Source: Gammaproteobacteria bacterium (GTDB lineage Bacteria; Pseudomonadota; Gammaproteobacteria; Ga0077536). From it: a stretch of DNA of 64,000 nt. Shown piece by piece: positions 14,987-42,305 of this stretch. Positions within the stretch are counted from its first letter, which is position 1. Each line of letters begins with the position of its first letter. Under the pieces are notes generated by a model. It made no database searches. It saw nothing but the letters and a program-made list of their open reading frames with translations, and was not told the origin of the DNA. Position numbers and translations under genes: made by a program. The DNA lies in the NCBI GenBank assembly GCA_963662545.2, contig CAXXLL010000002.1, forward strand, positions 448,001 through 512,000. Direction: 5' to 3'.

Positions 14987-15041
14987 GTCTGAACCTCCAT
15001 GAAAATCTTCGATTTCGACAAGTCCGTCTCCTGTCGTTCCG

Positions 15042-18000
15042 CTAAAACGTCCGGTATTCCCGCCATGTTATCTCGCCATTGGCGATGCCGCCGAGGGTCG
15101 TGGCATCGGTCGTATCGATGGCACCTGTCGATTTCTGCGTGATGACGGTGACTTTACCAGGAATGTCCTGATCACCGATATGGATACTGGGCGTGGAGGC
15201 GAGACCCGCGCCGAGGTCGACGAAGGGACTCGACTCGCTCACACCCGCGGGGCAACCCGCGCACGGAATTTCTCCGAAGATCGGACTCGGCAGCGCGGTG
15301 CCGGTATTGAAGGCGAGTCCGAGCAGGATACTGGTGCCTTCCGAGGTACAGAGGTCCGTGCTCGGGGTGAACGCGGTGTTGAACAGTACGCCGTCGATCA
15401 GGGTCGAGCGGTTCACGCTGCGCTCCGACGGGTCGGGCGCGTTCGTCGTGTAATGCCGCTGCCAGCCGCCGGCCGTCTCGACCGTTGCCTTGAGGGCGTC
15501 GAAAGTTATAATCACACTGCCGTCACCGTCGAGGTCGACGTCGCCGTTGGTGCGGACTACCGTGTTCGTCGTCACGATCAGGTCGGCGATCGTGGGCGAG
15601 AGGTTCGACGCATTGTCACCGACCGCGGGGTTCTCGTCGATGAATCCGTACAAGGTCTGCTCGGTTATGCTGGTCTTGTCCGCATTCACGTAGAGCCGTC
15701 CGGTGCCCGCCATCACCCAGGTCTGGAATTTCTCATCCACGGTTATTGACGCTTGGGAGATGAAGGGCTTGTTCGCATCCAGCAGCCTTTTGGCGGATCC
15801 CCAGTTGCCGGGATCGGGTTCCTCACCAATGGCTATGCGCCAGATCGAGCCGTCATCCGCGGTGGCGTCGCCGACGGTACCGAAATAAATGGCTTCCGCC
15901 TTCATGTCGACGTCGAAATCGATGACGACGGGATCGCCCACGAAGGTGTTGTTCTCGTTGACTTCTTCATAGCCGGCGCCGGTATTGAACGGCCCCGTCG
16001 TCACGCGCGCGCCATCTATGGTAAGAAGGGAAGCCCGCCCGGATGCCAGGTCAGCCAGATCATAGGCGAACAACCGGGCTTTCTGCGTCGACGTGGCCGT
16101 GCCGAGATCGGTCGGCCCCGATCCGAAGATCAGGTACCACTTATTGGGACTGGAAGTTGTAGTTGCCGGGCCCGGTGGTTCTATCGGGTCGCCAATGATC
16201 GCGATCTGCGGAAAGGAGGTCGTGAAATTGAGCCCATCGGGTGATAGTTCAGCCAGCACGTCGGGCGGACTTTCGGGATCCGTAATGTCGAGTATGACGA
16301 GTGCCGATTTCATCGTCGCGTCCGTACCGCCCATGTTGTCGATATCGAGCGAGATGCTGGTGTTATCCGAACCGCCGCCGAATCGCATGCCCATGACGAG
16401 CACGGTGCCCCAGCCATTGGGGTGGATGGTATCGGGCGCGAAGATCTTCGCATCGAACACGCGCGGCGTATTGTCCATGTAGAAGACGTGTGAGTAGTCC
16501 GGACGGGTCAGCCACTGCAGGTGGGGCAGGAGATTCTTCGGAATATAGGCCCACAGTTCCGCGCCCAGCGGGTGCGGCGTCTGGCTGTTTGGCGACAGCT
16601 CGAACTTCTTCGTAACAGCATTGAAAAAGCCGCCGTTGAACGCGTGGATCATGCCGCCGTTGCTGCCGATATACACGACTTGCCGCCGGTTCTGGTATTT
16701 CGCGCGGAATACGGCGTAACTGGTGTCGAGCGCCAGCAGGTCGAACGCCTCGATAGGCGTCGACACCGGGATCGGCGTCGAGTGGATGATGTCGGCCATG
16801 CGCATCAGTTCGAGATTGCCCGAGGCATGCGCCGCCGTGCCGCCCGCGTTGTTGCCATCGTAGTCCACGATGCGGTTGCGCAGGCCCGTGATGTTTTTGC
16901 CGCGCACCCAGTTGATGATGTTGTCGGCGGTCGCCTGGACGCCCTCGTCCAGCCATCGCCAGCGGTTGTTCGAGCCGAACGCCGAGGTCGTGAAGCTCAC
17001 GATCTCGGCGCCGCCGACATCGACGATATCGTTTAAGTCGTCGTCGACCCAGGTGATGATGTGGCGCCCTTCGTTGGCGCCCGTGCCGACCGCCACGTTG
17101 TAGGAACGCTGGTTCTCGATCGTTCCCTCGTCCAGGTCCGAGAGGCGTTCCCGGGCGTTCCAGATAGTCTGGAGCTCAGTCAGTTCGAGTATCGTAGAGG
17201 TGGCTGTGGCCTCTACGAATTCAAGCGGGTCGCTGGTTGAGAAGCGCCTTATCTTGGAACGCCGGTCGACCTCGTCAAAGAATATCTCGACGACCTTGTC
17301 GACGGTGTAGTCGTCGAGCTGGCCATCCTGGTCGTTGTCCTCGCGAATCAGGCCCTCCGGATCAACCCACAGGGCGTGCAAAGTGCCGATCCACTGCACT
17401 TCGTTCGAGGCGGCCGTGCTGTCCGATTTGAAGGGGTCGTAAAGTGCCTGAAACACGGCGCCGACGCCCTCCTGGTCGTTCGCGACCACGGCCGCGGCGG
17501 TACCGGAGGAGACGCGTTCAATGATGATGTCGAATACCGCGGACAGCGAATCCTCGAGCGCCGCCGGATTGGAGACGAAGAAAAAATTGTCAGGCACGCC
17601 GTCGCCGTCCGGAATACCGTCGGGTATGCCGTCGGGGGGACTATTAACGGTGTTCAGGTCTGGCGTAAACGCGCCGTTCTGGTCGCGGACGTCCCACTCC
17701 TGGCGGAGGTTGGGCGTGCCGTCGTCGTCGGTGTCGTTGAATCCGCCCCATTTGGCGGCGTAGTACAGCGGATTCTCGAGCAGGCCCGCCGCCGGCGTCG
17801 CGCTCACGGTGAAAGTGTGCGAAACGGGCGGGTCACCCACGTTGCAGTTGTTGCAGGCCGGCACGCCCGGAAATACCTCGTCAACGTAGTCGCCGTTCTC
17901 GATGCCGGAATAGGCGTGAAAGCCATCCTCGGTGGTGCCGCTCGTGACGAAACCGAAGAGCTGTTGGTTGACCGTCGATTCCGCAATGACATCGGTGGTG

Positions 18001-20225
18001 ACGGTGATGGTGTTCGCCGCCACGTCGACGATGTAATCCAGCAGGCCCCAGAGATCCTGGTCGTAGTCACCGCCCTGCTCGGAGTCCTTCCAGTTGATGT
18101 AGAACTTGCCGTGGAAAACCCCTGAGCCTACCTGCTCGGTCGGGAACAATACCGTCGGCTGTCCAGCCCCATTGACTTGTGCGGGATTGATCTCGGTGTG
18201 TTTTCGCACGACCTTGAAATCGACCAGCGCGCCGGCGCCTTCCGGTTGCCCTGCTTTGAGCAGGCGGTAACCGGGCAGGATATTGACGGTCGCCGCCGTA
18301 CCGTCCGGCCCGATGGGCGCGACGATCGCCGGCACGTTGGTGGCGAGCGCCACCGCGTAGGTTACGACGTCCTGGACGCCGTCCAGATCCGAACGCATAT
18401 CGTTAGTGCGGGCGTAGTGTGCCATGCCAGCCATGTGAAAAGAGCCCTCCAAGGTTGGCCCCTCGGGGCAAAGCCCGAAACTGTCACCCAGGCTGGTAAT
18501 GGTCTTGGGCGTGCAGACCTCGTCCGTCGCGGCGGCGGTCTTGCCGATAAACCACTTGTTGCCGTGGATGCCCTCACCGACGCCCACCGCGTCGGTCAGG
18601 GCTTTCGGTGTGGCACCGCCAAAGATAGCGCTACTGGTCTCGTTGTTGTCGTAAGAATTGATGCTCGCATTGAAGGCCACGACATTCAGCGAGGCACAAG
18701 CGTTGTCCGCGTCCAGTGGATCGGTCGCCCAGGACACCGAATTCGGCAGGGCCGAGAAGAAACTCGAATCGTTCGCGTTGAAGGCGGGCGTTGGCGCGCG
18801 GCCGCTGCCGACCGAGAAGTAACGCAGCGCCTCGAGGTAGATCTCGGAGATCGGATTACCCCAGGCCTCGCACTTGCCTGCAGTGAGGCCAGCCAGCTGG
18901 AAGCCGCAGTTGTCCTCGCTGTCGTCGCCAAAGTAGGTGCCGCCTTTATTGCCGTTGGCGCCGTAGTCGTAGCCCCAGATCCGCATCGTGTTCAACATGC
19001 CGATGATGTTGCCGGCGGCGGGGGCGGACTTGAAGGTGCCGTCCGTCGTGGTATTGATTTCATCGGTCATTACGCCGACGTTTTTGCGCAGCACACCGCC
19101 TGAGATGTTCTTCTGCCAGCTGCCGGTAATGAGGCCGAAATCGACCAAACCGGTCTCGCCATAGCGCTGTAGCAGCCCGGTCGGCTTAATATTACTGCTC
19201 GGATACTTCTTGCAGTTCTCGAGGTTGTTGCTCGCATCAAAGAAATTGTCGTCGCACACCTCGACGCGCACGATGTGATCCCGGGACCCGTTGGGCGTTT
19301 GGAGTTCGAGTGCCGGGAAAGGGTCGCTGTCGCCGGCGTTAATGCCGGATTGCGCGGATTGATTCTTGTTGATGTCGTCATTGCGGCCTTCGCGGTTGCT
19401 GCCGCTGGTCGGAGCCTCCCAGGTGCACTGCCAGCGCTCATTCGCGCCCCAGAGTTGCCGGTTGGTGCTTACCGCACGCAGCAGTGGTGGGCTGGTCGTC
19501 GTCTGCGAGTTCGTGTTCTCGCCGGAGAACGTGGTATTGCAGATCGTGATGCCTTCGTCGCTGTCGTCGACGCCGTCGTTGTTGCCGCCATTCAGCGTAT
19601 CGGTCTTGACTGAATTAAAGGGAGTGAGCTTGTCCACATCGGCGCCGTTGTAGTACTTCGCGAAGCTATGGGCGTCGGTCGGAAGGTGGGCGCGTTCCAG
19701 CACGGTCAGCGAACTCGTGTCGGTCGAACGCTTACCGCCGAAGAGGATCTTCCGGACGATGTCCATGCGCGACATTGCGGACCAGTTCAGGAAATTGCCG
19801 CTCCACGCGTCCGCGGATCCGCCGCTGCAATAATGCTTGTTAACGGTGCCGTCGGTCGTGGAGACCGGCTCGAAGCGTCCGTTCCCGTCGTCATAGCGGT
19901 AGCACAGCTCCGAATGAAAATAACCGTAGTACGTAAAGGTGTCGTCGTAGGTGGTCTCGATCACTCCGTCCGAATCGACATCCGAATAGTCGTTGTAAGC
20001 CTTGAAGAAGTACTGGTGGTCGCGTGACATCGCGAGCATCACCTGCGGCGTGACGGATTCCACACTCGTCACCGGTCCCGCCGTGTAATCGGCCATCGAA
20101 GCGCCCGAAAGTTGCGCGGCACTGGCATTGAACGAAGTCACGGCAGGAAGAAAGCCGATGCTCAGAACGACGCCGTGCATGAAGTGTTTCGAATAATGGA
20201 TGATGGAATGCATGGGCTTCCTCAT
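15042..20225 (-). CDS. pilY1: Type IV pilus adhesin PilY1
   Basis: 1727 aa; DIIHSTP, YIGSNGGMIHAF, ELWAYIP beta-propeller motifs; operon position. Confidence 0.9.
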   Translation of the reverse strand: MRKPMHSIIHYSKHFMHGVVLSIGFLPAVTSFNASAAQLSGASMADYTAGPVTSVESVTPQVMLAMSRDHQYFFKAYNDYSDVDSDGVIETTYDDTFTYYGYFHSELCYRYDDGNGRFEPVSTTDGTVNKHYCSGGSADAWSGNFLNWSAMSRMDIVRKILFGGKRSTDTSSLTVLERAHLPTDAHSFAKYYNGADVDKLTPFNSVKTDTLNGGNNDGVDDSDEGITICNTTFSGENTNSQTTTSPPLLRAVSTNRQLWGANERWQCTWEAPTSGSNREGRNDDINKNQSAQSGINAGDSDPFPALELQTPNGSRDHIVRVEVCDDNFFDASNNLENCKKYPSSNIKPTGLLQRYGETGLVDFGLITGSWQKNISGGVLRKNVGVMTDEINTTTDGTFKSAPAAGNIIGMLNTMRIWGYDYGANGNKGGTYFGDDSEDNCGFQLAGLTAGKCEAWGNPISEIYLEALRYFSVGSGRAPTPAFNANDSSFFSALPNSVSWATDPLDADNACASLNVVAFNASINSYDNNETSSAIFGGATPKALTDAVGVGEGIHGNKWFIGKTAAATDEVCTPKTITSLGDSFGLCPEGPTLEGSFHMAGMAHYARTNDMRSDLDGVQDVVTYAVALATNVPAIVAPIGPDGTAATVNILPGYRLLKAGQPEGAGALVDFKVVRKHTEINPAQVNGAGQPTVLFPTEQVGSGVFHGKFYINWKDSEQGGDYDQDLWGLLDYIVDVAANTITVTTDVIAESTVNQQLFGFVTSGTTEDGFHAYSGIENGDYVDEVFPGVPACNNCNVGDPPVSHTFTVSATPAAGLLENPLYYAAKWGGFNDTDDDGTPNLRQEWDVRDQNGAFTPDLNTVNSPPDGIPDGIPDGDGVPDNFFFVSNPAALEDSLSAVFDIIIERVSSGTAAAVVANDQEGVGAVFQALYDPFKSDSTAASNEVQWIGTLHALWVDPEGLIREDNDQDGQLDDYTVDKVVEIFFDEVDRRSKIRRFSTSDPLEFVEATATSTILELTELQTIWNARERLSDLDEGTIENQRSYNVAVGTGANEGRHIITWVDDDLNDIVDVGGAEIVSFTTSAFGSNNRWRWLDEGVQATADNIINWVRGKNITGLRNRIVDYDGNNAGGTAAHASGNLELMRMADIIHSTPIPVSTPIEAFDLLALDTSYAVFRAKYQNRRQVVYIGSNGGMIHAFNGGFFNAVTKKFELSPNSQTPHPLGAELWAYIPKNLLPHLQWLTRPDYSHVFYMDNTPRVFDAKIFAPDTIHPNGWGTVLVMGMRFGGGSDNTSISLDIDNMGGTDATMKSALVILDITDPESPPDVLAELSPDGLNFTTSFPQIAIIGDPIEPPGPATTTSSPNKWYLIFGSGPTDLGTATSTQKARLFAYDLADLASGRASLLTIDGARVTTGPFNTGAGYEEVNENNTFVGDPVVIDFDVDMKAEAIYFGTVGDATADDGSIWRIAIGEEPDPGNWGSAKRLLDANKPFISQASITVDEKFQTWVMAGTGRLYVNADKTSITEQTLYGFIDENPAVGDNASNLSPTIADLIVTTNTVVRTNGDVDLDGDGSVIITFDALKATVETAGGWQRHYTTNAPDPSERSVNRSTLIDGVLFNTAFTPSTDLCTSEGTSILLGLAFNTGTALPSPIFGEIPCAGCPAGVSESSPFVDLGAGLASTPSIHIGDQDIPGKVTVITQKSTGAIDTTDATTLGGIANGEITWREYRTF

Positions 20226-20254
20226 GGTCTTGTCCTCGTAATTCCGTGGGCGTC

Positions 20255-20899
20255 TCAGTTGCGCACCAGGACGCGGTAATCTGCGCCCGTGACGATCACC
20301 GCGTTACCCGCGGATACGCCGATCGACCTCATGTCGAAAAAAACGTGTGCGCCCGCTCCGGCAGCGCCGACGCCGGGCCCGAGATAACCCGATCCCTGCG
20401 CTGCCCCGGAACCGGGCGAGAGCATGCTGGCCGTGCGTGTTACCCAGACGTCGGAGAACATGTCGGTGTTGTCCGGGGAGTTGTCGCCGTCGGTATCGAG
20501 CTTGAATCGCATGTCTTCCGTGCGCGCATAGGGATCGGAGACGAGATCCGCGAGTACCCCGTTGGTGCCCATGAAGTAATCCGCCGTGGCATTGACGACC
20601 TCGACCTCGGTCGGGATGTCGAAACTCGCCGTCGCCGGCGCGGTGCCCCCAATAGCCGTCGGCCAGCCGCGATAGAACACGTGGTCTTCAAGCGTCGGCC
20701 CGACCGCAGTTCGCGCACCCTCCGAGCTCTGGAACGCGCGCCGCGAAAGCGTCGTATTCGTCGTCATCTTGAGATCGACGGTGGTCGTGCGCGTGGCGAC
20801 GACCGCAATCATAGTCATGACCAGCAACATGATCAGTGCAATGACCAGTGCCATGCCGCGTTCAATGTGGGAGAAATTCGATTGCGAAGTCCGGTTCAT
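20255..20899 (-). CDS. pilX: Minor pilin PilX
   Basis: ERG|MALVIALIMLLVMT, lacking Glu5 as is typical of PilX; AFQSSE. Confidence 0.85.
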   Translation of the reverse strand: MNRTSQSNFSHIERGMALVIALIMLLVMTMIAVVATRTTTVDLKMTTNTTLSRRAFQSSEGARTAVGPTLEDHVFYRGWPTAIGGTAPATASFDIPTEVEVVNATADYFMGTNGVLADLVSDPYARTEDMRFKLDTDGDNSPDNTDMFSDVWVTRTASMLSPGSGAAQGSGYLGPGVGAAGAGAHVFFDMRSIGVSAGNAVIVTGADYRVLVRN

Positions 20900-20902
20900 G
20901 GT

Positions 20903-21931
20903 TCAGGCCCTCGTGAGGTTTCTTATCTGGACGACAAAATTGAACAGCTTGCGACGGTAGGAACGGTCAGCTGCAACTGGGGTGTAAGGGAACCCGCCGT
21001 ACATATTGAAGGTGCGAGTATCGGTAAAGGTCGCGTCGTATTCCTCGCCCCGGATGACGAGCGATATTTGGACGTTCGTCACCCGGTTCCAATTGCTGTT
21101 GGTGGTGATGGTCGTCGCGTCAAAGTATTGGATCTGAGGCGGATCGACGGATTCGTCCAGAAGGCCGTAAGTGATCTGCATTTGCTCGACGCCCGCGATG
21201 ATGTCTTCCTCGACCAGTTGGGTGCCGCTGAGTACAAGCCGCGTCAGAGTCGGCGTCGTGTCGTCGGCAGCGTCGCAGACGTTGGGCGTGCCGAAATCCT
21301 GGGAGGCGCACTTGCGAATGAAATAGACCGCTGTCTTGAAGCGGTAATTGGTGAATTCTGTGTCGGTTCCGGTGGCCGGATGCACCGGGTAGGGCGTGTC
21401 CGCCTGGATGTCCGCGTCCAGGGCGGCCAGCGCCGTGCCCTGGAAGATGGCGGCCCGGCGCCCGATCGCCGTGCGCAGATAGATGTCGGCCGAGGTGACG
21501 ATGTCTTCCGACCACACGCGCTCCGGTTGCCCATAACGGATGATGAGCATGTCGGTGTTCGGCTGGTAGTCGGAGGCCGGAACGCAACTGAGCGGTGCGG
21601 TCGCCGCGCCCTCGAATCCAATGAATCCGATCGGCGTTAATGCCGGGCTCTCGGCGCAATCGTCGGTAATCGCCACGGTCGTCTCTAAGGAAATGGCGGA
21701 AGCCTCGACGCCACCCCAATGATCGCCCATGCGCAGGTCGTACTGTATCTGGTTGAGGGCATAGCGGGCATTCTCGTTTAGAATGTTAGTGCTCTCCTGC
21801 AGCCGGTAAGCCTGCTTGTTGCTCACGAATATGCTGATGATCCCGGACAGCAGAATCAGTCCGACGGTGATGGAAACCATCAGCTCGATGAGCGTAATAC
21901 CGCGCTGTCGATCGTTGTTTAAAGCTCGCAT
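20903..21931 (-). CDS. pilW: Minor pilin PilW
   Basis: QRG|ITLIELMVS; ENARYAL..I..DLRMG; GVEQMQITYG. Confidence 0.88.
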   Translation of the reverse strand: MRALNNDRQRGITLIELMVSITVGLILLSGIISIFVSNKQAYRLQESTNILNENARYALNQIQYDLRMGDHWGGVEASAISLETTVAITDDCAESPALTPIGFIGFEGAATAPLSCVPASDYQPNTDMLIIRYGQPERVWSEDIVTSADIYLRTAIGRRAAIFQGTALAALDADIQADTPYPVHPATGTDTEFTNYRFKTAVYFIRKCASQDFGTPNVCDAADDTTPTLTRLVLSGTQLVEEDIIAGVEQMQITYGLLDESVDPPQIQYFDATTITTNSNWNRVTNVQISLVIRGEEYDATFTDTRTFNMYGGFPYTPVAADRSYRRKLFNFVVQIRNLTRA

Positions 21932-21954
21932 AATTATGGTTCTCTAGTTCGCGT

Positions 21955-22521
21955 TTACGGCATTTCGTCCAACGCGGGCAGCACGGTCATGATGAATACC
22001 TGGTTCTGTACGTCCGCACCGCCGGCATCGTCTGCGCGGACGGAACGTTCCTCCCACTGCAGCTTGATCGCGTACACATTACCGTTGTCGTCGCAGGCCC
22101 AGTTCGAGGCGTCGCCGTCGTTGGGAGTCGCGTCGCGGCAGACCACGCCGACGCCCAGGGGCAGCACCCCGGCGTTGGATTGCTGCGGCTGGCCGGTGGT
22201 CGTTTGGTTCCACGTAACGAGGTCGAAGGTTGCGCGGGCTTGCGCATCGCAGACCGTCGTCGAGCAATCGGTTGGAAACGAAGTCGGCATGCTGGTGGTC
22301 ACATTGTAAAAACCGTTGCGCACGCCAAACTCATTCGCCCGCATGAGATCGGCCATCGATTCCGCCTGCATGGTCCCGGCGGAACGCAGTTGCGAGCCGT
22401 GGGTGAACCGCATGCCGGCGATTTGCAGGCCGGCAATGCCGAGCAGGCCGATCGCAAAGATCACGATCGCGATCAGCACTTCGATCAGCGTGAATCCTTG
22501 ATGAAGGCGGGCTACGGACAT
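21955..22521 (-). CDS. pilV: Minor pilin PilV
   Basis: QG|FTLIEVLIAIVIFAIGLLGIAGLQ; MADLMRAN. Confidence 0.9.
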   Translation of the reverse strand: MSVARLHQGFTLIEVLIAIVIFAIGLLGIAGLQIAGMRFTHGSQLRSAGTMQAESMADLMRANEFGVRNGFYNVTTSMPTSFPTDCSTTVCDAQARATFDLVTWNQTTTGQPQQSNAGVLPLGVGVVCRDATPNDGDASNWACDDNGNVYAIKLQWEERSVRADDAGGADVQNQVFIMTVLPALDEMP

Positions 22522-23138
22522 GACAGTGCACTCCCGTTCGGTTGTTTGGCCAGGCTCGCTACGCGTCCGGTGCGGCTGATCGCCAGCGCCTTGGCGTATT
22601 GGGCGCCGCGGAAGTCGCACAGAGTGAAAAAGGTGTTGGCGTTATTGCAGGTTTCGAGCGTCGTGATATCGCCATCCGTATTGCAGCGCAGCGAGCCGTC
22701 GCCCACGTAAGCAAGGAAATCGGGCGCGCCGGCGCCTGGGGTCAGGATATTCGTACCCGGATAGGCCGCCTGGCTGGCGATGATGCAGTCGGTCGTGGCG
22801 GTCACCGCGCAATCGTCCGTACCGGGCGGACCGAGGTCGACGACACTGTTGTTGTTGCGATCAACGAATACCAGCCAGCCCTCATCCCAGGTTGTGCCGC
22901 TGCCGGTAGCTTCGCAGGCCGTGCCATTGGTCGAAACGCAGATGAGCACGCGGTCGTTCCGTTTAATGGCCTCGCTGCGCGCGATCGCCAGCGAGGTAGA
23001 CAGTAGGTTGATCTGACTGGTCAACCTGCTGTTTTGAAGGAATGACTGCATGCCGGGGACGCCAATACCCATGAGCACGCCCAGAACCGCGATCGCGACC
23101 ATCAATTCGATGATGGTGAAGCCGAGTTGTCTGTTCAT
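22512..23138 (-). CDS. fimT: FimT/FimU (GspH-like) minor pilin
   Basis: LG|FTIIELMVAIAVLGVL; ARSEAIKR; W..GWLVFVD. Confidence 0.85.
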   Translation of the reverse strand: MNRQLGFTIIELMVAIAVLGVLMGIGVPGMQSFLQNSRLTSQINLLSTSLAIARSEAIKRNDRVLICVSTNGTACEATGSGTTWDEGWLVFVDRNNNSVVDLGPPGTDDCAVTATTDCIIASQAAYPGTNILTPGAGAPDFLAYVGDGSLRCNTDGDITTLETCNNANTFFTLCDFRGAQYAKALAISRTGRVASLAKQPNGSALSCP

Positions 23139-23409
23139 GAGCGAAAGTATGGACAGTGCAGCGAGCCGTTGCCCGCCCCGATCGACGAACGGCGCGAATC
23201 TCGCGGCGAATGGTCGCAGCACCCGAAAAAATATGAACGGCGTCACACTCGTCGGTGCGGTTTCGTGGAAACTCTGCGGCGCGGTAGGCTGGCGACCGCG
23301 TTTCCGGCGGCCGCGCGCAGGGTGGACTCTGGGCAAAAAGTCAGAGCGCGAATGCAAATAATTCTCGTTTATTCTAGACAAGGTCTAAGCAACGCGTATA
23401 CTTCGGATC

Positions 23410-24462: not shown

Positions 24463-25398
24463 ATGCTCGACCCAGTTGAATTATTTCCGGAGGTCCCGAA
24501 CCTCTACGATTTCCCGAGTGTGCATTCCGATATGTTGCTTGATCGCCGCAGAATTTCGGCGTACCAACAAGCGATTAGCGAAGTCGTACAGCTAGGTGAC
24601 ACCGTCGTTGATCTTGGCGCCGGAACTGGAATCTTGTCATTCCTGTGCATTCAAGCCGGCGCCAAAAAGGTCCATGCTATCGAAAGAGCTTCCATTATCA
24701 ATTCAGCAAAAATAATTGCTTTCGATAACGGGTTTGCGGACCAAATTGTGTTCCATCACGGAGATTCAAGATCAATATCCCTTCCTGAAAAAGTCGATGT
24801 TATTGTCAGCGAGATCATTGGACATGTCGCCTTTGAAGAAGGAATGACCGCGGCGTTACTTGACGCCAGAAACCGCTTTTTGAAAAAAGATGGACAAATT
24901 CTCCCCTCGTTCGTTGATTTGCGCGGGGCATTAGTTAACGAAACACACGTCTACCATAACTACATTAGCAGTTGGGATACTTTCTTTGGATTTGACTTCT
25001 CTGCTCTTCAAGAAATCGCAGCAAAGACCGCTTATGTCACAGAAATATATTCTAAGGACCTTATGTCTGACTCTACGCGTCTCCTGGAGTGGAATTTCAC
25101 CGAACTCAATTTCGAGAGAGATCGCGAAATTGAGTTCGACTTGCCGGTGCTAAGGGATGGTCAGGTAAACGGACTAGCTTTGTGGTTTGAGGCGACATTA
25201 TCACCGTCAGTTTTCTTGTCTTCTTCGCCCTGGAACAAAACACATTGGGGGCAATGTTTTCTCCCCTTTCTAAAACCCATCGAAGTTCGGGCTAGAGAAA
25301 CAATGAAGATGGAGTTGAGAATGGCGATCGAAAGTCCAGTAAGTGGGACGTTCGAAATCTCAGTAGCGCCGCACCGTGAGAACCGTGACTGTGCGTAG
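24463..25398 (+). CDS. Protein arginine methyltransferase (PRMT)-like SAM-dependent methyltransferase
   Basis: H..ML.D..R..AY..AI, VVDLGAGTGILS (motif I), VDVIVSEIIGHVAFEE (double-E loop), GLALWFEA and THWGQ (THW loop). Confidence 0.85.
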   Translation: MLDPVELFPEVPNLYDFPSVHSDMLLDRRRISAYQQAISEVVQLGDTVVDLGAGTGILSFLCIQAGAKKVHAIERASIINSAKIIAFDNGFADQIVFHHGDSRSISLPEKVDVIVSEIIGHVAFEEGMTAALLDARNRFLKKDGQILPSFVDLRGALVNETHVYHNYISSWDTFFGFDFSALQEIAAKTAYVTEIYSKDLMSDSTRLLEWNFTELNFERDREIEFDLPVLRDGQVNGLALWFEATLSPSVFLSSSPWNKTHWGQCFLPFLKPIEVRARETMKMELRMAIESPVSGTFEISVAPHRENRDCA

Positions 25399-26771
25399 AG
25401 AGCGGACATCTAAGACGAATATAGGCAATCAGCTGTCGTCGCGCCGGAAGAGTTTGAATAATAACGATAGAAAAACGGTTGTTCTTTTCGCCGACATAAT
25501 GGGAGCATCTGAAGTATCAAACCACAAAGGAACTAAACAGTATTTCGAGTTCGTTCGGGAATTTCAAATAATCTTTTGCAAAGTTTGTGAAACTCATTTC
25601 GCAAAGTTTCACGAAAAAGAAGAGGATTTTTATCTCTTCGATGCGCGAGGGGACGAGGGAATCCTCATGATTCTCCCTCCGAACGATCTGAAGAATGACA
25701 CATTTGCACGACATGTTGATTTAGCATTGACGATTGCGCTAGCGCTTAAACGCGAATGGCTAGCTTGCGACGAAAATCGCTCACGGGTTAAAAATCAGAA
25801 GTTACTGCCCGTAGACTTGGGTATCGGAATACATGTAGGGCACACATTCATTGAGGAAGATAGAACGTCAAAGCATGCAATCCGAAATCCAAGGGGATTT
25901 AGGCCGGAAGGCTATGCAATAAATCTTGCCAAGCGAGTCGAGGGGTACTCACGAAACGGCAAATTCACCAACATTTTTCTAAGTGAGGCGGCGCATGGTG
26001 CGTGGACCGGCGTTCCGGACGAGCGAATGGTCATATTCGATGAAATGCAGGTGATGGAACCGAAAGGCATTAGTAGGAAAATAGCTGTGTTCGAAGTTAA
26101 ACATCACTTCCTGCCGACCGATTGGGCCGACTACATCGATGTCGCATCAAAACGCGGTCGATCGTTAGTTGATACAAGAAAAATAGATCTTGAATTGCTT
26201 CACTCTGCTCATGCGCTTAACCCGACAAATTTGTGGCTTGCTGAGGAGTACATTCTTCAAAGCGTCGTCGCGAACTATTCTGGGATCAAGATGAAAGATA
26301 GGAATAGGCCAGAGTTCAGAAAGAAAGCTTTCTCCGAAGCTAAGGTAATAGCCGAAAATTTGGCCAACAGTGAACTTCGAGATCCTGGAATATTGCTAAT
26401 TCAGGGCTTCCTCGAAGGTGAGCAATTTGAGTTCGGAAGTGAACGAGAATTTTACGATGAAGCCGCGGCGGATCCCCGCGCAAGGATGGCGGAAGTTCAT
26501 TGGTATAAGGCGTTGTCGTATTCCTATCAAATCTTTTATGAATTAAACCGGTCAATGAAGAAAAGTTGGGACGATCTTGAGAGGAACCAACAAGACTTAA
26601 TCAAGCTGGCTTATAAGGAATTTGAAAAAGCCAAGAACTTTGATACCAACTCTGCGTGGCTGCCTTTTGATCATGTTTGTGAATTGGTTCGATGGGCAAC
26701 TAGTATCGAGGACACTAACGCGGGAATTGATCAGATTGAAATCGCTCATAGCCGATTGTCCGAGGACATAG

Positions 26772-28474
26772 CTAGTGTGCATCCCTAAACGCGATGCGGT
26801 TGAAATAAAAAGGAAAATTTGTCGCTTAAGGGATCGAAACCTCCGGTAGGTCGTGATCTAATGGAACTTCAAACCTCTGATTTTCCACACAATCATCGAC
26901 ACCACAGGAGGGGGAATGCGTCAGAAACGCACGGCCCAAGCGAGTATATACGAGCTGTTTGCTGACCATGACCTGGGGCGAGAGCTGCAGGGCATGTCCG
27001 AGTGGCTCGATGCTCACCCCAAGGTCCTCACGCCGGTCATGAACGATCTGTGTCGGCGGGGTTTGAAGCCCACCGGTCGACGCGGACTGTCGGCGGAGTC
27101 GGTGCTGCGCTGCGCGGTGCTCAAGCAGCACCGGCAATTGAGTTACGAGGAGCTGGCCTTTCACCTGCAGGACTCGGCGAGCTTTCAGGCCTTCGCCCGG
27201 TTGCCGGGTAATGAACGTCCGAAGAAGTCTGCCTTACAGCGGGTGGTCTCGGCGATCCAGGTATCGACGTGGGAGTCTATTCATCGCGCCCTGCTGGCGA
27301 CGGCGAAAGAGACGCGCATTGAGCCGGCACAGCGTGTACGGATTGATAGCACGGTAACGGACAGTGCCATCCACGCGCCGAGCGACAGTCATCTGCTGTG
27401 GGATGGCGTGCGTGTTGTGGTTCGTCTGCTCGCACAGGCGCGCGAGTTGCCTGGCGCGCCGGAGTTGTGCTTCGTGAACCACACTCGATTGGCGAAGAAG
27501 CGTGCGCGGGCGCTGTGGTATGCGCGTGGTGCGAAGCAACGCCAACGTCTGTATCGCGATTTGATTGGGGCGACGCGTTCAACCTTGGAAGCGGTAGCGA
27601 GGGTACGTGAGCAGCTGCTGAGCCCGGGCGTCACCGGCGTTGAACTGCCGGACTGGCTAGCGCAGGTAGCGCACTACGAAACACTTGTTCTGCAGGTGAT
27701 TTCGCAAACTGAGCGGCGGGTGTTCGGCGGTGAGAAGGTCCCCGCGAGCGAGAAGTGCGTGAGCTTGTTCGAGCCGCATACCGACATCATCATAAAGGGT
27801 GCGCGCGACGTTCAGTACGGACACAAAATCAATCTGGCTTCGGGGCGCAGTGGCCTCATCCTCGACGTGGTCATCGAGCGAGGCAATCCGGTCGATAGTC
27901 AGCGCTTCATGCCGATGCTCGAACGGCATCGAACACACTACGGGACGATGCCACGACAGGTCGCCGCCGATGGCGGCTATGCGAGCCTCGACAATCTCCG
28001 GGCGGCGAAAGCAGAAGGCATCGAAGACGTTGCCTTCCACAAGAAGCGCGGGCTCGCGATCGCCGACATGGTCAAGAGTCAGTGGGTCTATCGACGCTTG
28101 CGCAACTTCCGCGCCGGCATCGAGGCCGGTATCTCCTGCCTGAAGCGTGCATACGGATTGGCACGTTGCACCTGGAAGAGCCTGCCGCACTTCGAAGCCT
28201 ACGTGTGGTCTTCTGTGGTCGCCTACAACCTCAGCCTGCTCGCGCGCTATCAACTCGAATAGCGACGTTCACTCGCACTAACTGACCTCCTCGATATCGT
28301 CGAACGGGCGACTTTGGGTTGCAGCGCTCTGCGGCCGGCGAACGTACTCACAATTACGCTCGAAGAGCCCTTCGACCCCCACCGAACCGCCGCTACCGCT
28401 CCAACAACCTACTTTCAACACCTCGATTTCTCCGTGCCCATCGAAGAAAATGCCTGTTTATGGACGGACACTAG
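26772..28474 (+). mobile_element. ISNCY/IS5-like insertion sequence, copy 1 (1703 bp)
   Basis: Ends CTAGTGTGCATCCCTAAAC / GTTTATGGACGGACACTAG; near-identical to 47940-49642. Confidence 0.93.
26916..28262 (+). CDS. DDE transposase (ISNCY-type)
   Basis: RIDSTV, AADGGYAS, FRAGIEAGISCLKR. Confidence 0.92.
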   Translation: MRQKRTAQASIYELFADHDLGRELQGMSEWLDAHPKVLTPVMNDLCRRGLKPTGRRGLSAESVLRCAVLKQHRQLSYEELAFHLQDSASFQAFARLPGNERPKKSALQRVVSAIQVSTWESIHRALLATAKETRIEPAQRVRIDSTVTDSAIHAPSDSHLLWDGVRVVVRLLAQARELPGAPELCFVNHTRLAKKRARALWYARGAKQRQRLYRDLIGATRSTLEAVARVREQLLSPGVTGVELPDWLAQVAHYETLVLQVISQTERRVFGGEKVPASEKCVSLFEPHTDIIIKGARDVQYGHKINLASGRSGLILDVVIERGNPVDSQRFMPMLERHRTHYGTMPRQVAADGGYASLDNLRAAKAEGIEDVAFHKKRGLAIADMVKSQWVYRRLRNFRAGIEAGISCLKRAYGLARCTWKSLPHFEAYVWSSVVAYNLSLLARYQLE

Positions 28475-28570
28475 CTAATGAGATCGAAAACGAGGAGTAC
28501 CTCGAATCTGTGCGGGATCACCCAAAAATTCGCAAGTTGATTACATAGGTGATTACAAAGCCGGCGCATC

Positions 28571-29753
28571 ATGACAATCCGAAACTACGATACCCCTGCA
28601 ATAGTTTACGACGAGAACGTATTGCGGGGAACAGTAAATCGACTACTGCGTGCTAACGTATTGCGTAAATCGACTACTGCGCGGATGCGGATGCAAGTTG
28701 CTGTACTCTCCAAAAGCATGTGCAGTTTCAAGCGTCATGAAAACTCTCGGCGAGATGGTGATCGGCTTTTCATGTAGCTCTTTGAACGAATGCAAGCGGG
28801 CCCGCGCTCATTTGGGGCCAAAAGGTGAAGTGCATCTTGTAACTCCTGCAATCAAAGATCGTGACGTCCGAAAAATAGCAGAAGTTTGTGATTACGTTGT
28901 TTTAAACAGCTTGGCGCAACACGCTAGACTTACCGGAGTTCTATCCCTGTCGTGTCAAGTGGGATTGCGAGTAAATCCGCAACTCTCGTTTGCAAAAGAT
29001 TCGCGTTACGACCCGTGCCGTTCTGATTCTAAATTGGGCGTACCGGTAAATTCGTTGATACAGAATATTGAGGATCATGCGTTCGAGTTAGATGGATTAA
29101 GTGGTATCCACGTTCACAACAATTGTGAAGGGACGGACGCCTGTGATATCGCAGAAACAACACGGAAGTTGATACGCGGTATCCCAGGCATCCTGGAAAA
29201 AATCGCATGGATTAATCTTGGTGGAGGGTATTTTTACGACGAGTTCGAAAATCCCGAATTATTCGTCCAGACGGTCTCAGAATTGAAGGAGAGATTTAGT
29301 CTTGATGTGTATATCGAACCAGGCGCGGCCATCGTCCGTCAGGCAGGATCAATTATTTCCAGTATCGTAGATTTGTTTGAAGGAGAAGATCGGACAATCG
29401 CGGTGCTTGATACCTCGGTGAATCACATGCCGGAAGTCTTAGAGTATCAGTATACGCCCGATGTGGTTGGACATTCGGAAGGCGCACTACACGAATATGT
29501 GTTAGCGGGCTGCACATGCCTCGCTGGAGATCAGTTTGGTATATCGTGCTTTGATGCCCCCCTTTCCTTAGGAAATGAAATCGTTTTCCCAAACGCTGGT
29601 GCATACACGATCTCTAGGGCGAATACATTTAATGGCGTCCCGTTACCAGATGTCTACCTTCGTACTACCGACGGAGAATTGGTAGAAGACAAGGCTGCGA
29701 TCGTGGGGCGTGCTACAGACGACTTCGAGCTATTACCTCATGAAATTGCTTGA
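28571..29753 (+). pseudogene. Carboxynorspermidine decarboxylase (NspC)-like fold III PLP decarboxylase, frameshifted near its 5' end
   Basis: DTPAIVYDE in one frame. YSPKA (PLP Lys), RYDPC..SKLG, GIHVH, INLGGG, YIEPG, HMPEVLE, TCLAGD, NTFNG in the next frame. The shift is caused by a 31-nt internal duplication. Confidence 0.8.
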
Positions 29754-31083
29754 ATTCAGTTGCCGTGTCCCGGCGGTTCAAGCCCGATCGACTCTAATCG
29801 ATCACTTTCGCGGGGCCGTATCTTTTCATTCCAACGGAATGACCCCAATTCGGTTTGCCGTAACTTCGCTAGACGATGAAGGCTTCGACTGTGAAGTCGC
29901 AGCAGTTGATCAGACGCTTCTTGAAAGTGCATCAGATCAACTTTCGATCTTTTCGTTTCGACAACGGGAGTTTGAGAGCGTAGAGAAATTTAACGCCGTT
30001 ATGGTAGTTCCGACAGGAATCGGAGCGGCATACGGAGGACATGCGGGTGATTCAACTCCAGTGGCTCATGTCTTAGCAAAAAGTTGTGACACATTGATTC
30101 TTCACCCGAATGTGGTCAACGCGTCGGACATTAATGAGGCCCCCGCTAATTCTCTATATATAGAGGGAAGCATACTTTCTCGATTAATGATGGGGACAGT
30201 GGGTTTGAGGCGAGTGCGATCAAACCGAGTGCTGGTCGTGATCGACGGGGACCACGATGAGATGTTTACTAACGCCACTATTAACAGCGTTAACGCAGCG
30301 AGAGCAAGCTACGGGCTGGATTGTGTTGATGTCGTAAAGATGGACCCACCTGTCAAACTCAAGACCTCTAGTGCCAAATCGGGACGAGCAACTGGAACGG
30401 GGAAGAATATTTCTAATCTGATTGAAGAATTAGCTGCGAGAGAGGGAACATACGACGCCGTCGCGATAGCTTCAGTGATAGAAGATGCCGACGGGCAACT
30501 AAATGCATATTTTGAGAGCGACGGAAGTCTAGTTAACCCATGGGGAGGCATCGAGGCGATGCTGACCCACACCATTTCAATTCGATTTAACGTCCCGACC
30601 GCGCATTCACCGATGATGGAATCGAAAGCGGTCGCCGCTCAAGATTTGGGTATTGTCGAGCCGAGGATGGCAGCGGAGGCTGTCTCAATGACGTTTTTGA
30701 ATTGTGTCTTAAAGGGCTTGCACCAAAGCCCCCGAATCGTTCATGGCGCTTTTGATTTCGTAAATCCTGAAATTCTGACCGCATCTGATATCTCGTGTTT
30801 AATTATCCCGGATGGGTGTGTTGGATTACCAACCCTCGCGGCTCTTGAGCAGGGAATAAAAGTAGTTGCGGTCTCTGAAAACGAGAACCTTATGAAGAAC
30901 GATTTAGAACGCCTCCCGTGGAAGCCAGGTCAGTTGATTAAAGTACGTAGCTATTTTGAGGCTGCTGGCGTAATGAACGCTCTTCATATAGGGCTTTCGC
31001 TCGATACACTAAGCCGCCCACTTAAGAGTGTCGGAGTAAGTGCCGCATATTGGGCTTCATCGGTCCGCCGAAAGCCGGCATAG
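29740..31083 (+). CDS. DUF3326-family protein with N-terminal extension
   Basis: VPTGIGAAYGGHAGD, HPNVVNA, LYIEG, NPWGGIEAMLTH, PTAHSP, PRMAAE. Confidence 0.82.
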   Translation: MKLLEFSCRVPAVQARSTLIDHFRGAVSFHSNGMTPIRFAVTSLDDEGFDCEVAAVDQTLLESASDQLSIFSFRQREFESVEKFNAVMVVPTGIGAAYGGHAGDSTPVAHVLAKSCDTLILHPNVVNASDINEAPANSLYIEGSILSRLMMGTVGLRRVRSNRVLVVIDGDHDEMFTNATINSVNAARASYGLDCVDVVKMDPPVKLKTSSAKSGRATGTGKNISNLIEELAAREGTYDAVAIASVIEDADGQLNAYFESDGSLVNPWGGIEAMLTHTISIRFNVPTAHSPMMESKAVAAQDLGIVEPRMAAEAVSMTFLNCVLKGLHQSPRIVHGAFDFVNPEILTASDISCLIIPDGCVGLPTLAALEQGIKVVAVSENENLMKNDLERLPWKPGQLIKVRSYFEAAGVMNALHIGLSLDTLSRPLKSVGVSAAYWASSVRRKPA

Positions 31084-31821: not shown

Positions 31822-32562
31822 AGCGGCATCGTGCCGTCGAGTTTTCGTATTCTTCGACAACTAATAGGTCGTATCGAGGACGATGCGAGTGGCGACATCA
31901 AACCGCGTGAGTTCCACGTCGAGATTCCGGCTGCGCGCATCGAAGAGGCGGCGGCAGCGGCGGCCGTACTTAACGATGAGGTCTATTCAAAGTTCCCGTT
32001 CACGGCATCGACCCAACCTATACAACATGAACACAGTGAGTTAGTACTCAACCGCACGTGGCGTCCCACGCTAGCGGTCACTGGCGCAAATGGCCTGCCA
32101 CCGCTGGCGGACGCGGGCAACGTGCTACGCCCAATGACTGCAGCTAAACTGTCGTTGCGCCTGCCACCGACCTGTGACGCTACAGCGGCTAGCGCCAAAC
32201 TGAAAAACATTCTGGAGAGTGAACCGCCTTATCGCGCCAAGGTAACGTTTGAGCCAGAAGAAGGCGCCACCGGTTGGGAGGCACCCGAGCTCGCACCATG
32301 GCTATCGCAGGCGGTTGATCGGGCGTCACAAACCTATTTCGGTCGGTCGGCTGTCTATATGGGCGAAGGCGGTTCGATTCCTTTCATGGGGATGTTAGGT
32401 GAGCAATTCCCACAGGCGCAGTTTTTGATTACGGGCGTGCTCGGTCCTCACTCGAACGCACATGGGCCTAATGAATTCCTGCATATCCCTACTGCGAAGA
32501 AAATCACCTGCTGTGTCGCCCAGGTAATCGCCGATCATTTTGTGCAAGCTAAAGATCGATGA
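31813..32562 (+). pseudogene. C-terminal half of an M20/M25/M40 peptidase
   Basis: GEASGIVPSSFR, KLSLRLPP, GEGGSIPF, SNAHGPNE. The N-terminal metal-binding half is absent. Confidence 0.8.
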
Positions 32563-38756: not shown

Positions 38757-39380
38757 CTAATCCTTCCAGAACCCATTAAACCGATTCGCCGCCAACTCCG
38801 TATACCGACAAGTATGCTGAATATTGGAATGCCCCAAATACATCTGAATCGCTCGAGTATCGTGTCCTTCATTGGCTAAGTAGAAACCGCAGGCATGTCT
38901 GAGCATATGCGGATGAACCGGAAATCCCAGCTCGGCAACTTCCCCCGCCCTCGCGATAATCTTCCGCACAGCTGACGTTGTCAGCGGCCCTCTGCGCTCA
39001 GTGACGAACACATACGGGGACTTCTCATACTCGCGCTGTAAGCGTTTAAGAGCGCGCAATTCTGGCCCTCTAAGCGGGTGTGTGGAGTCAATCCCACCCT
39101 TCATCCTTACGACGTGTAGTTGACCCTGTTTCAGGTCGATTTGGTCCCATCTCAGGGATACTAATTCGGACACGCGCAGAGCATGGCGGTAAGCAATCAG
39201 GATGAGCGTCTTGTCTCGGAACGGATGCCGACCGACCCTGCCGGCAGCCAGCATTAGTTGCGCGACTTCGTCAGGCGTTAAGTATTCGCGTGACCTGACA
39301 TCCTTGTTTCTGGGTTTCCGGGGTAACTTTCCCGAAAACGATGGTTGGGGTAGGTCGATGACGTTGGCTGTAGCCCGCAT
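38757..39380 (-). CDS. FimB/XerC-like tyrosine recombinase (catalytic domain only)
   Basis: REYLT..EV, HALRVSE, RMKG, HPHMLRHACG, YLGH.NIQHTCRY. Confidence 0.9.
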   Translation of the reverse strand: MRATANVIDLPQPSFSGKLPRKPRNKDVRSREYLTPDEVAQLMLAAGRVGRHPFRDKTLILIAYRHALRVSELVSLRWDQIDLKQGQLHVVRMKGGIDSTHPLRGPELRALKRLQREYEKSPYVFVTERRGPLTTSAVRKIIARAGEVAELGFPVHPHMLRHACGFYLANEGHDTRAIQMYLGHSNIQHTCRYTELAANRFNGFWKD

Positions 39381-39462
39381 GGTTGCTTACCTCGTGACCC
39401 GCAACTCTCCCGAAAATGGGTGCTTTCGGGAAAGACAGTTAGAAGTAAATTGCGAGTCAACG

Positions 39463-39702
39463 TCAGGTTTCGGACTGGCCAGGTTTGGGTGGTTCACTCG
39501 ATGTCTCCTTCGATTTCATCCGAAATGCGCGGCGGAGGACGCCTACTACGATTTCACTGGCGTTCTTGCCCTGTTTCTTAGCCCGGCGCTTGATTTCGGC
39601 GTCGATCGAATCAGGAATGCCGTAAGAGCGCGGAAGGACCTTTTCGTCTGGGTACTTCCTCTTTCGTCCGGCGCCTTCGCGCTTCCCGCCTTTCGGAGAC
39701 AT
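39463..39702 (-). CDS. Ribbon-helix-helix-like DNA-binding protein
   Basis: GGKREGAGRK; SYGIPDSIDAEIKRRAKKQGKNASEIV. Confidence 0.65.
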   Translation of the reverse strand: MSPKGGKREGAGRKRKYPDEKVLPRSYGIPDSIDAEIKRRAKKQGKNASEIVVGVLRRAFRMKSKETSSEPPKPGQSET

Positions 39703-40098
39703 GCAGACATTTTACATGCCCCCAACCGGCGCCTTTTGATTGATTATAAATATTCTAAAATGCAATTCAATGATTTCTTATAATATTTCTTAATATCGGA
39801 TGAAATTGGGAGTAGGATCTAGCCGCCAAGCTAGGCCGTAATTCATTAGAGAGAGCCGTTGGCATCGCAAGAAGTTAAGACGGGTGACGGACCCGAGGAG
39901 GCGCCAAGATGGATTACACGACGCAAGAAAAGCGCGATATTTTCTTTACGGCCCTAGATGTTAGGGCTGGCGTTGCGGAGCCAGAGGCTGCCCGCCAGCT
40001 CATGAAATATTTGGGACTTATGCACCAAAATCAGCAAAAACTCCTAGACATCTGATTATAAATGACATATAATAATAAGCAGTAAATAGGAGTTCCCG

Positions 40099-41046: not shown

Positions 41047-41173
41047 AAACAAGCAGGGTGCTCATTTTGAGCACCCTGCTATGACGAAAAAGTTGCGCCC
41101 CGTGTAGCTTGGCGGCAGATCGGGGAAACCCTCACACGCTATGTTTAATCATAACGTGGAGGCTTCTCTATGC

Positions 41174-42304: not shown

Positions 42305-42305
42305 G

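Follow-up and report, generated by a model that had tools for sequence, protein, structure and literature searches.

Background

The closest functional precedent for the genes considered here comes from the biosynthesis of pavettamine in P. caledonica, where PavA is described as a Rieske protein with an NspC/lysine-decarboxylase-like C-terminal domain and PavB as a member of the family DUF3326 (bioRxiv 10.64898/2026.06.12.731819). According to the same preprint, deletion of either pavA or pavB abolishes N-(5-aminopentyl)pentane-1,5-diamine, and the authors propose that the two proteins jointly carry out the decarboxylation and condensation of lysine and cadaverine (bioRxiv 10.64898/2026.06.12.731819). 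Here we analyse four co-oriented plus-strand genes at positions 24463-31083 of a 64,000-nucleotide stretch of a gammaproteobacterial genome (assembly GCA_963662545.2, contig CAXXLL010000002.1, positions 448,001 to 512,000 of the forward strand; hereafter the window). They encode a methyltransferase (MT) with the fold of protein arginine methyltransferases (PRMTs), a predicted class III nucleotide cyclase with a tail resembling tetratricopeptide repeats (TPR), a decarboxylase of the NspC family and a DUF3326 protein. The cassette is real and conserved; the function that we propose for it from sequence comparison, and favour if tentatively, is the regulated synthesis of a polyamine- or guanidino-type amine.

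Like the cassette, the pavABC genes of Burkholderia sensu lato encode an NspC-like domain and a DUF3326 protein next to each other, both being needed for a polyamine-type secondary amine, but, as described there, they differ in the N-terminal Rieske domain on PavA, in the JmjC hydroxylase PavC and in having neither a PRMT nor a cyclase. The cassette, for its part, has a stand-alone decarboxylase, with no Rieske fusion and no JmjC gene found. An earlier note on this DNA, made from the letters alone, knew of no described system with this combination of genes. We likewise found no publication on the four-gene system, but PavA/PavB is a precedent, and the only functional one, for the pairing of a decarboxylase with DUF3326, which is thus not wholly undescribed.

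A second comparison is with the carboxy(nor)spermidine route, to which the carboxyaminopropylagmatine route is related. The solved enzymes nearest to the cassette decarboxylase are carboxynorspermidine decarboxylases, and in both cases a two-gene unit ends in decarboxylation, the intermediate decarboxylated being one that resembles a basic amino acid, but the cassette enzyme scores 252 bits against a curated cut-off of 409, its operon holds no dehydrogenase, and DUF3326 stands in the place of that partner. The E. coli operon yjfL-yjfM-yjfC provides a third, since homologues of its genes (DUF350-DUF1190-YjfC) place the decarboxylase-DUF3326 pair right after them in 28 of the 80 DUF3326 loci analysed below and in L025, which has the full four genes, whereas the window is without these genes and the E. 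coli operon is without the pair. Operons of the PspA/YjfL/YjfM/YjfC type are linked to polyamines in a published account (PMC11237479).

Two defence systems also enter the comparison. The sibling cassettes in which Septu genes (the PtuA ATPase and the PtuB HNH nuclease) precede a decarboxylase and DUF3326 share the core of the window's cassette, although neither the window nor its genome has a PtuA homologue. Pycsar consists of a PycC cyclase and a PycTM or PycTIR effector; the cassette resembles it in placing a class III-type cyclase beside swappable downstream genes, with a PycTM-type protein of two transmembrane segments (2TM) in 2 of 29 cyclase loci. It differs in the TPR-like tail of its cyclase, in the PRMT-fold gene upstream, in its weak PycC matches, and in that its usual downstream genes are enzymes with no recognisable receptor for cyclic nucleotides (cNMPs). 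Neither the window nor its genome has a TM or TIR effector, and among the 29 orthologous loci a TM effector occurs only in the two just mentioned.

A conserved four-gene cassette

Genes were identified from calls of open reading frames (ORFs) on the plus strand of the window, together with Pfam, NCBIfam and PADLOC scans. They are arranged as follows (IS, insertion sequence; SAM, S-adenosylmethionine; PLP, pyridoxal phosphate):

24463..25398, plus strand: PRMT-fold SAM-dependent methyltransferase (MT), 311 aa, intact; Pfam PRMT_C 2.1e-18
25376..26774, plus strand: predicted class III nucleotide cyclase with TPR-like helical tail, 5' part; 466 codons and one base, truncated by the IS
28478..28549, plus strand: 3' remnant of the cyclase-TPR gene; last 23 codons and stop codon TAG at 28547-28549
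28571..29753, plus strand: NspC-family PLP decarboxylase, frameshifted near codons 25-35; TIGR01047 6e-75
29740..31083, plus strand: long-form DUF3326 protein, 447 aa, intact; PF11805 7e-91

The identities, common orientation and AT-richness that the earlier note had ascribed to the four genes are borne out by the ORFs, by the domain matches, which for the cyclase are those of its homologues, and by a guanine-plus-cytosine (GC) content of 47.0% for the cassette minus the IS, as compared with 59.6% in the left flank and 58.1% in the genome. The MT and DUF3326 genes are full length when compared with their families, while the cyclase is called as an ORF at 25376-26788 and the decarboxylase appears as two ORFs in two frames (28571-28777 and 28650-29753). 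With the IS removed the genes are tightly packed, as had been noted: MT and cyclase overlap at 25376-25398, provided that the GTG at 25376 serves as start, the cyclase and the decarboxylase are 21 nt apart (28550-28570), and the decarboxylase and DUF3326 genes overlap by 14 nt (29740-29753).

The same arrangement is found elsewhere. Scans with a cyclase alignment as query yielded 15 genome loci and 56 metagenome loci, such a query being required since a scan with the window cyclase alone gave no locus. Taking as full-length orthologues those matches that reach query residue 430, and counting the identical loci L011 and L124 once, we obtained 29 unique orthologues, with MT directly upstream in 28 (the exception being L009). 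The decarboxylase and DUF3326 follow in 15 of the 19 orthologues that have at least 1.9 kb of downstream DNA, and six more loci with shorter downstream DNA show the start of the decarboxylase. Of the four that deviate, L009 has nothing recognisable downstream, and in L107 MT and cyclase are followed by a 2TM protein and then by a GHMP kinase; in L129 (1761-2720) and L134 (3238-4152) an arginase-family ureohydrolase (PF00491, ~1e-55) after MT and cyclase replaces the core pair. A further 26 shorter cyclase matches, which extend to residue 342 or less and are in many cases labelled Syntrophaceae or delta proteobacteria, have none of these partners and are treated as probable paralogues.

Genes within the cassettes overlap or stand a few bases apart, the genes flanking the cassettes are not conserved between loci, and the loci are labelled with several phyla and groups including Nitrospirae, Desulfobacterales and Rhodospirillaceae. 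Eight of the MT-cyclase cassettes, those of the window and L025 included, use a PLP decarboxylase, and 15 use an enzyme resembling S-adenosylmethionine decarboxylase (AdoMetDC). The gene order in L025, a metagenome-assembled genome of the Rhodospirillaceae, is DUF350-DUF1190-YjfC-like-MT-cyclase-decarboxylase-DUF3326, the MT-cyclase pair standing between the YjfC-like ligase and the decarboxylase. A chance mosaic of four unrelated foreign genes, for which the IS-ridden region and the two broken genes might speak, is scarcely credible given that order and orientation are the same in 15 of the 19 informative cyclase loci and in L025, in sequences labelled with several phyla and with flanking genes that are not conserved; this recurrence of gene order rules it out. 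Co-occurrence elsewhere, on which the earlier note had made its proposal depend, is thus found in the same order in dozens of environmental contigs from several phyla, and the four genes are best explained as one conserved, horizontally acquired operon.

The decarboxylase-DUF3326 core

The last two genes of the cassette belong to a stable, fixed two-enzyme unit. A DUF3326 scan of species-representative genomes gave at least 549 stretches, from which 80 loci were analysed; the gene beside DUF3326 is AdoMetDC-like in 57 of them, NspC-like in 20 and neither in one, the other two being without upstream DNA, so that a decarboxylase adjoins DUF3326 in 77 of the 78 loci having such DNA. We saw no fused decarboxylase-DUF3326 forms. 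One candidate for a fusion, a 611-aa DUF3326 protein on a 6.6-kb contig (P0124), turned out to contain an internal partial duplication of DUF3326 instead.

The decarboxylase is a PLP enzyme of the alanine-racemase fold, with Pfam matches to Orn_Arg_deC_N/Orn_DAP_Arg_deC. Its match to the nspC model TIGR01047 (6e-75, 252 bits) lies below the cut-off given above, and so does that of an intact relative at 277 bits; the best Protein Data Bank (PDB) matches of the intact L025 orthologue are carboxynorspermidine decarboxylase structures (9eaf at 8e-66). The alternative occupant of the slot is a protein of about 130 aa with a Pfam AdoMet_dc match at 3.7e-14 and no PDB match by phmmer. Its family has Thr-Ser at the putative self-cleavage position, where the canonical AdoMetDC site is Glu-Ser. 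In a study of this family, AdoMetDC homologues are said to have repeatedly become ornithine or arginine decarboxylases and to occur in polyamine clusters (PMC10407285). As the PLP and AdoMetDC-like enzymes fill one slot beside one partner, the two unrelated decarboxylases are suggested to do the same job there.

DUF3326 itself matches PF11805 above the gathering score and over almost the entire profile (305 bits, 7e-91, residues 85-424 on profile positions 1-336 of 337), and the window protein has in addition an N-terminal extension of about 85 aa, in which the long form carries invariant arginines. It is present as a single copy in this genome and is 50-68% identical to proteins from many phyla, the long form being abundant (of 8,000 candidates scored, 5,426 matched significantly). 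In 21 DUF3326 members, Pfam at E<=10 recognised no domain besides DUF3326. A possible relation to isochorismatase-like hydrolases came down to a 33-residue match at E 0.13, which is a lead at most.

The earlier note had remarked that the dehydrogenase with which NspC-type enzymes normally pair is absent. There is indeed none in the cassette, but its absence is most simply explained by DUF3326 being the fixed partner of the decarboxylase, and DUF3326 may stand in for it, because the two genes adjoin so regularly and because neither of two complete chromosomes has a saccharopine-dehydrogenase-type gene. More generally, a Sacchrp_dh_C homologue is absent in three of five genomes with an NspC-like/DUF3326 pair, both complete chromosomes among them.

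Methyltransferase and cyclase

Besides several SAM-methyltransferase domains, the MT protein has a Pfam match to the PRMT_C beta-barrel (PF22528, 2.1e-18, residues 162-288), and phmmer aligns its residues 14-283 with the CARM1, PRMT6, PRMT3 and PRMT1 structures at ~1e-35. When it is aligned with CARM1, motif I, both acidic residues of the double-E loop, which hold the guanidinium, and the THW loop are all present, and these positions are invariant or at least 90% conserved in 31 family members, a second family alignment agreeing. MT therefore shares with these type I PRMTs the catalytic core, both loops and the beta-barrel, and is unlike them in being bacterial, a stand-alone protein of 306-311 aa, and encoded in an operon with small-molecule enzymes. 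At E<=1e-30 its family comprises 273 members. When genomes were scanned with the MT alignment, the matches listed were only paralogues of at most 43% identity, none with the cassette; one of these paralogues has a distant arginase-family gene nearby.

Is the methyl acceptor a protein or a small molecule? The intact guanidino-binding site of the PRMT, taken with the arginase-family enzyme that replaces the core in 2 of 19 loci, points to guanidino compounds (arginine, agmatine, aminoalkyl-agmatine) as the probable theme of the MT-cyclase pathway, and PRMT-fold enzymes that act on free arginine are reported in natural-product pathways. Our search of the literature on bacterial PRMTs and free arginine brought up nothing useful. 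Alternatively, MT might be a true protein arginine methyltransferase acting on the cyclase-TPR protein or on one of the enzymes, so that MT and cyclase would be purely regulatory and no methylated small molecule would be made. This we consider improbable, even though MT matches the entire catalytic core and beta-barrel of eukaryotic type I PRMTs that act on proteins, MT almost always accompanies the cyclase (28 of 29), tails of the TPR-like kind serve to bind proteins, and invariant arginines occur both near the second metal-binding Asp of the cyclase and in the N-terminal extension of DUF3326. That the gene between MT and the core can be other than a cyclase, as in L080, also speaks for a protein substrate, but small guanidino compounds are at least as good a match to the chemistry of the decarboxylase and to the arginase-family gene that replaces the core in L129 and L134.

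The second gene is, from the evidence of its relatives, a predicted class III cyclase with a TPR-like helical tail. The earlier note's assignment holds through the homologues, the family profile and the catalytic residues, but not through the window protein itself, which has no Pfam match. There are 158 homologues of about 480 aa, many with precomputed PF00211 and TPR families and many annotated by their source as class 3 adenylate cyclases; the family profile matches the structures of CyaB (3r5g) and Cya2 (2w01) at ~1e-7; and in 24 sequences D40, D93 and N183 are invariant and R187 is at least 90% conserved, in alignment with CyaB and Cya2. It is these three lines together that carry the identification. 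In canonical cyclases the base is specified by Lys/Asp for ATP and Glu/Cys for GTP. Here an invariant Arg two residues before the second metal-binding Asp takes the place of the base-specifying lysine in a different position, so the product nucleotide cannot be predicted.

Interchangeable partners and viral copies

The genes upstream of the decarboxylase-DUF3326 pair vary, the 80 loci being distributed as follows:

YjfC homologue, usually with DUF350 and DUF1190: 28 of 80 loci
PtuA plus PtuB: 21 of 80 loci
PtuA alone: 2 of 80 loci
394-aa family with no known relation: 8 of 80 loci
MT: 2 of 80 loci
other, or nothing recognised: 19 of 80 loci

The YjfC homologue matches E. coli YjfC (PDB 7UK6) at 3e-114, and Pederick et al. 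are said to have described in 2023 a peptide-spermidine ligase activity for YjfC. The Septu-type genes were called by PADLOC (PtuA 4.8e-54, PtuB 1.3e-46) and by the NCBIfam models for PtuA/PtuB of retron Ec78. Their cassettes are operonic, with gaps of -86 to +144 nt among PtuB, decarboxylase and DUF3326, and the loci (L031, L043, L047, L050, L061, L078, L096, L103 and others) are labelled with many phyla; we found no publication on Septu with decarboxylase-DUF3326 genes. A gene resembling 4-HFC-P synthase lies beside the Ptu-core cassettes in seven loci. Two other proteins, neither with a Pfam or PADLOC match, occupy the place of the cyclase upstream of an AdoMetDC-like/DUF3326 pair: one of 577 aa, between MT and the pair, in L080 (4861-6594), and one of 673 aa in L075 (4598-6619). 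No relation of the cyclase family to three other front genes, encoding proteins of 673, 394 and 506 aa, was detected by hhalign.

When the five partner classes are mapped on a FastTree phylogeny of 92 DUF3326 proteins, 24 changes are required, as against a mean of 53 when labels are shuffled, and none of 200 shuffles is as low. The MT-cyclase label has at least three origins on well-supported branches, and the window protein falls in a clade of four (support 99), all from MT-cyclase-PLP-decarboxylase cassettes. The core pair also occurs on viral contigs: in 58 DUF3326 loci from IMG/VR (L161-L218) an AdoMetDC-like gene adjoins DUF3326 in 54, and MT, cyclase, Ptu and YjfC genes are found in none. 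In 48 of these 58 loci the match starts no earlier than residue 65 of the query, at a point immediately following the decarboxylase gene, so most viral DUF3326 proteins appear to be without the N-terminal extension.

Defence-type genes accompany some of the cassettes. The 2TM protein of L107 (4552-5127), right after the cyclase, has 191 aa and matches PADLOC PycTM at 1.7e-28 and a CBASS 2TM model at 1.2e-30; its homologue in L105 (5591-6169), 2 nt after the DUF3326 gene of a full cassette, matches PycTM at 6.8e-33. DrmC-like and RecD-like genes are neighbours at L128, and SIR2/pAgo-associated and PsyrA genes at L014. In the genome of the window, searches for the 2TM effector, for YjfC, for PtuA and for the arginase-type and AdoMetDC-like genes found no homologue.

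These neighbours lead us to consider a Pycsar-like anti-phage system, in which the cyclase-TPR protein would sense infection and make a cyclic nucleotide, and the downstream genes would be interchangeable effectors, whether a 2TM pore, an arginase-family hydrolase or the decarboxylase-DUF3326 pair. The enzymes would act either by using up arginine, SAM or precursors of polyamines or by producing an amine that is toxic or antiviral, with the PRMT-like protein tuning sensor or effector. We regard such a system as a serious rival, though as the less likely one. The 2TM proteins fit it well but occur in just 2 of 29 cyclase loci. The PycC model is matched at E<=0.01 by 12 of 24 cyclase family members (best 1.9e-6), but no more strongly than any class III cyclase might match it, and the PADLOC check that the earlier note had proposed recovered no known defence system among the four proteins: there was nothing for the decarboxylase or DUF3326, a match of the MT domain to mad2, and, for the window cyclase, PycC at E 0.009. 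In MT, decarboxylase and DUF3326 we detected no domain for the binding of cNMPs. The operonic association with PtuA-PtuB in 21 of 80 loci across many phyla, the 24 or more swaps of partner module on the DUF3326 tree, and the neighbours at L128 and L014 all favour defence, and the 28 loci that tie the core to a YjfC-type ligase operon instead do not. The cassette lies in foreign DNA together with part of an integrase gene, the two halves of a DUF3987 gene and a gene for tRNA-Thr, as defence cargo might, and a core pair carried by uncultivated viruses would fit counter-defence. The rate of evolution, on the other hand, looks metabolic: median pairwise identities are 56% for DUF3326, 61% for the AdoMetDC-like protein, 57% for MT and 63% for the YjfC-like protein, as compared with 34.5% for PtuA and 31% for PtuB, the cyclase standing at 39.5%.

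A broader version of the conflict idea, which we think unlikely as a whole, would have the decarboxylase-DUF3326 pair provide the central chemistry of a novel class of systems for virus-host conflict. A polyamine-like amine would be read or controlled by interchangeable front ends, namely Septu PtuA-PtuB or a PRMT with a Pycsar-like cyclase-TPR and sometimes a 2TM pore, the short-form viral pair would supply or counterfeit that amine, and the window would hold a dead copy of the cyclase-controlled version.

A proposed pathway to a polyamine-like amine

The explanation that we tentatively prefer remains the regulated synthesis of a polyamine- or guanidino-type amine. In this scheme the decarboxylase-DUF3326 unit would make a polyamine-type secondary amine, with DUF3326 forming the C-N bond, a task otherwise left to the carboxy(nor)spermidine dehydrogenase that is absent here, and the decarboxylase taking off the carboxylate. 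MT would N-methylate a guanidino group, which could belong to a protein arginine or else to a compound derived from arginine or agmatine that the core consumes or produces. The cyclase-TPR protein would turn the pathway on through a cyclic nucleotide, made when its TPR-like tail binds a ligand. We infer the polyamine link of the core from its YjfC-ligase neighbours, its likeness to carboxynorspermidine decarboxylases, the AdoMet_dc-like alternative and the PavA/PavB precedent; likewise inferred are the reaction of DUF3326, what MT methylates, which nucleotide the cyclase makes and what the pathway is for, be it polyamine supply for envelope or stress or a part in virus-host conflict.

Several observations weigh against this explanation. 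In 21 of 80 loci the core shares an operon with PtuA-PtuB (with PtuA alone in two more), a PycTM-type effector follows the full cassette in L105 and the cyclase in L107, and defence-type neighbours are found at L128 and L014. None of the four subfamilies has a recorded product, substrate or activity, and PavB, likened to the window protein by its DUF3326 family assignment, may be a distant paralogue of the long form. A search of the PDB sequences with the DUF3326 profile found no solved relative; the clusters that a DUF3326 homologue retrieved from a protein Atlas were all of DUF3326 and bore an automatic name of no help; and the window protein, compared by tblastn at 1e-5 with PLSDB plasmids and with GenBank phages, had no match in either. 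The window cyclase-TPR protein has no Pfam match at E<=0.01, no NCBIfam match and no convincing PADLOC match, and in its family the position four residues ahead of the second metal-binding Asp holds no conserved Lys. The acceptor of MT may also be a protein rather than a small molecule. Finally, four of the five genomes with an NspC-like/DUF3326 pair also have a spermidine synthase homologue, for which reason the pair is not simply a spermidine route; it would instead make an amine other than, or additional to, housekeeping spermidine. Of the two possibilities raised by the earlier note, a methylated-amine pathway coupled to cNMP signalling and an anti-phage module built on the TPR cyclase, both therefore still stand and neither is proven.

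Two lesions in the window copy

That an IS is present and that two genes are broken, as the earlier note had seen, is confirmed. The block that interrupts the otherwise AT-richer cassette is GC-rich and consists of:

26775..28471, plus strand: IS element, 1,697 bp, with a DDE_Tnp_1 and DUF772 transposase ORF at 26916-28262 and a terminal inverted repeat
26769..26774 and 28472..28477, no strand: 6-bp target-site duplication, an identical 6-mer on both sides of the IS

These limits were set from 41 copies of the element in the genome for which both ends are present; they share the same terminal bases, and their flanking 6-mers vary among copies and agree pairwise. The IS cuts the cyclase gene after codon 466, and the translated tail (28478-28549) fits the C-terminal consensus of the cyclase family. 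The decarboxylase is read in one frame from 28571 to about 28650, which gives its N-terminus, and in another from 28650, which gives the remainder including the PLP-lysine region; its homologues align in these two frames at 28577-28645 and 28653-29744, and an imperfect short tandem duplication spans the frame change. With the cyclase truncated and the decarboxylase frameshifted, this copy of the operon should be non-functional.

The earlier note had taken the broken genes as a sign of a costly or decaying system, which is not shown. The genome gives 54-59 BLAST matches to the IS, mostly 99-100% identical, and holds about 50 copies, so that a burst of the IS may explain the insertion. A second copy (DDE_Tnp_1/DUF772) lies in the window at 48084-49430, and several copies elsewhere stand head to tail with only the 6-mer between them (e.g. 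around C2:570377-575470). The near-identity of the copies, their 6-bp duplications and these arrays point to a recent burst and to tandem insertion of the element into its own ends.

Origin and surroundings

The GC content of 47% as compared with 58%, the absence of DUF3326 from the 40 relatives searched (33 of the 41 genomes, that of the window included, being at least 90% complete) and the clustering of the window DUF3326 with proteins of other MT-cyclase-PLP-decarboxylase cassettes argue that the cassette is of foreign origin and was horizontally acquired. The island that the earlier note had assumed is a reasonable reading of the region to the right of the cassette, which contains:

38757-39380: integrase fragment
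40099-41046: IS1595
44228-45772: DUF3987 gene split in two
50114-52084: IS66 with a TnpB-like orf2
52713-52788: tRNA-Thr

A DUF5681 gene also lies within this stretch (38757-52788). Just downstream of the cassette is a truncated M20 peptidase gene (31831-32562), of which only the C-terminal portion is present, corresponding to positions 290-448 of the 456 in the profile of a PRK07907-type dipeptidase. Upstream, minor-pilin genes occupy 14477-23381 (ComP_DUS, GspH-like and N_methyl proteins), and among these type IV minor-pilin genes a minus-strand ORF of 1,727 aa (15042-20225) has no Pfam match at 1e-5. The window also has methylene-tetrahydromethanopterin (methylene-H4MPT) dehydrogenase and HiPIP genes, on account of which the host looks like an environmental methylotroph.

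Implications

In this genome the locus is an inactivated passenger of the island, from which no phenotype is expected. For the family as a whole, DUF3326 as the fixed partner of two unrelated polyamine-type decarboxylases points to an undescribed route to polyamine-like amines, one that would also be relevant to the pavettamine pathway. A near-obligate pair of PRMT and cyclase genes is unusual in bacteria and would offer a tractable entry to bacterial guanidino methylation. With the same core wired to Septu genes, to a Pycsar-type 2TM effector and into viral genomes, a role of a small molecule in phage defence becomes directly testable.

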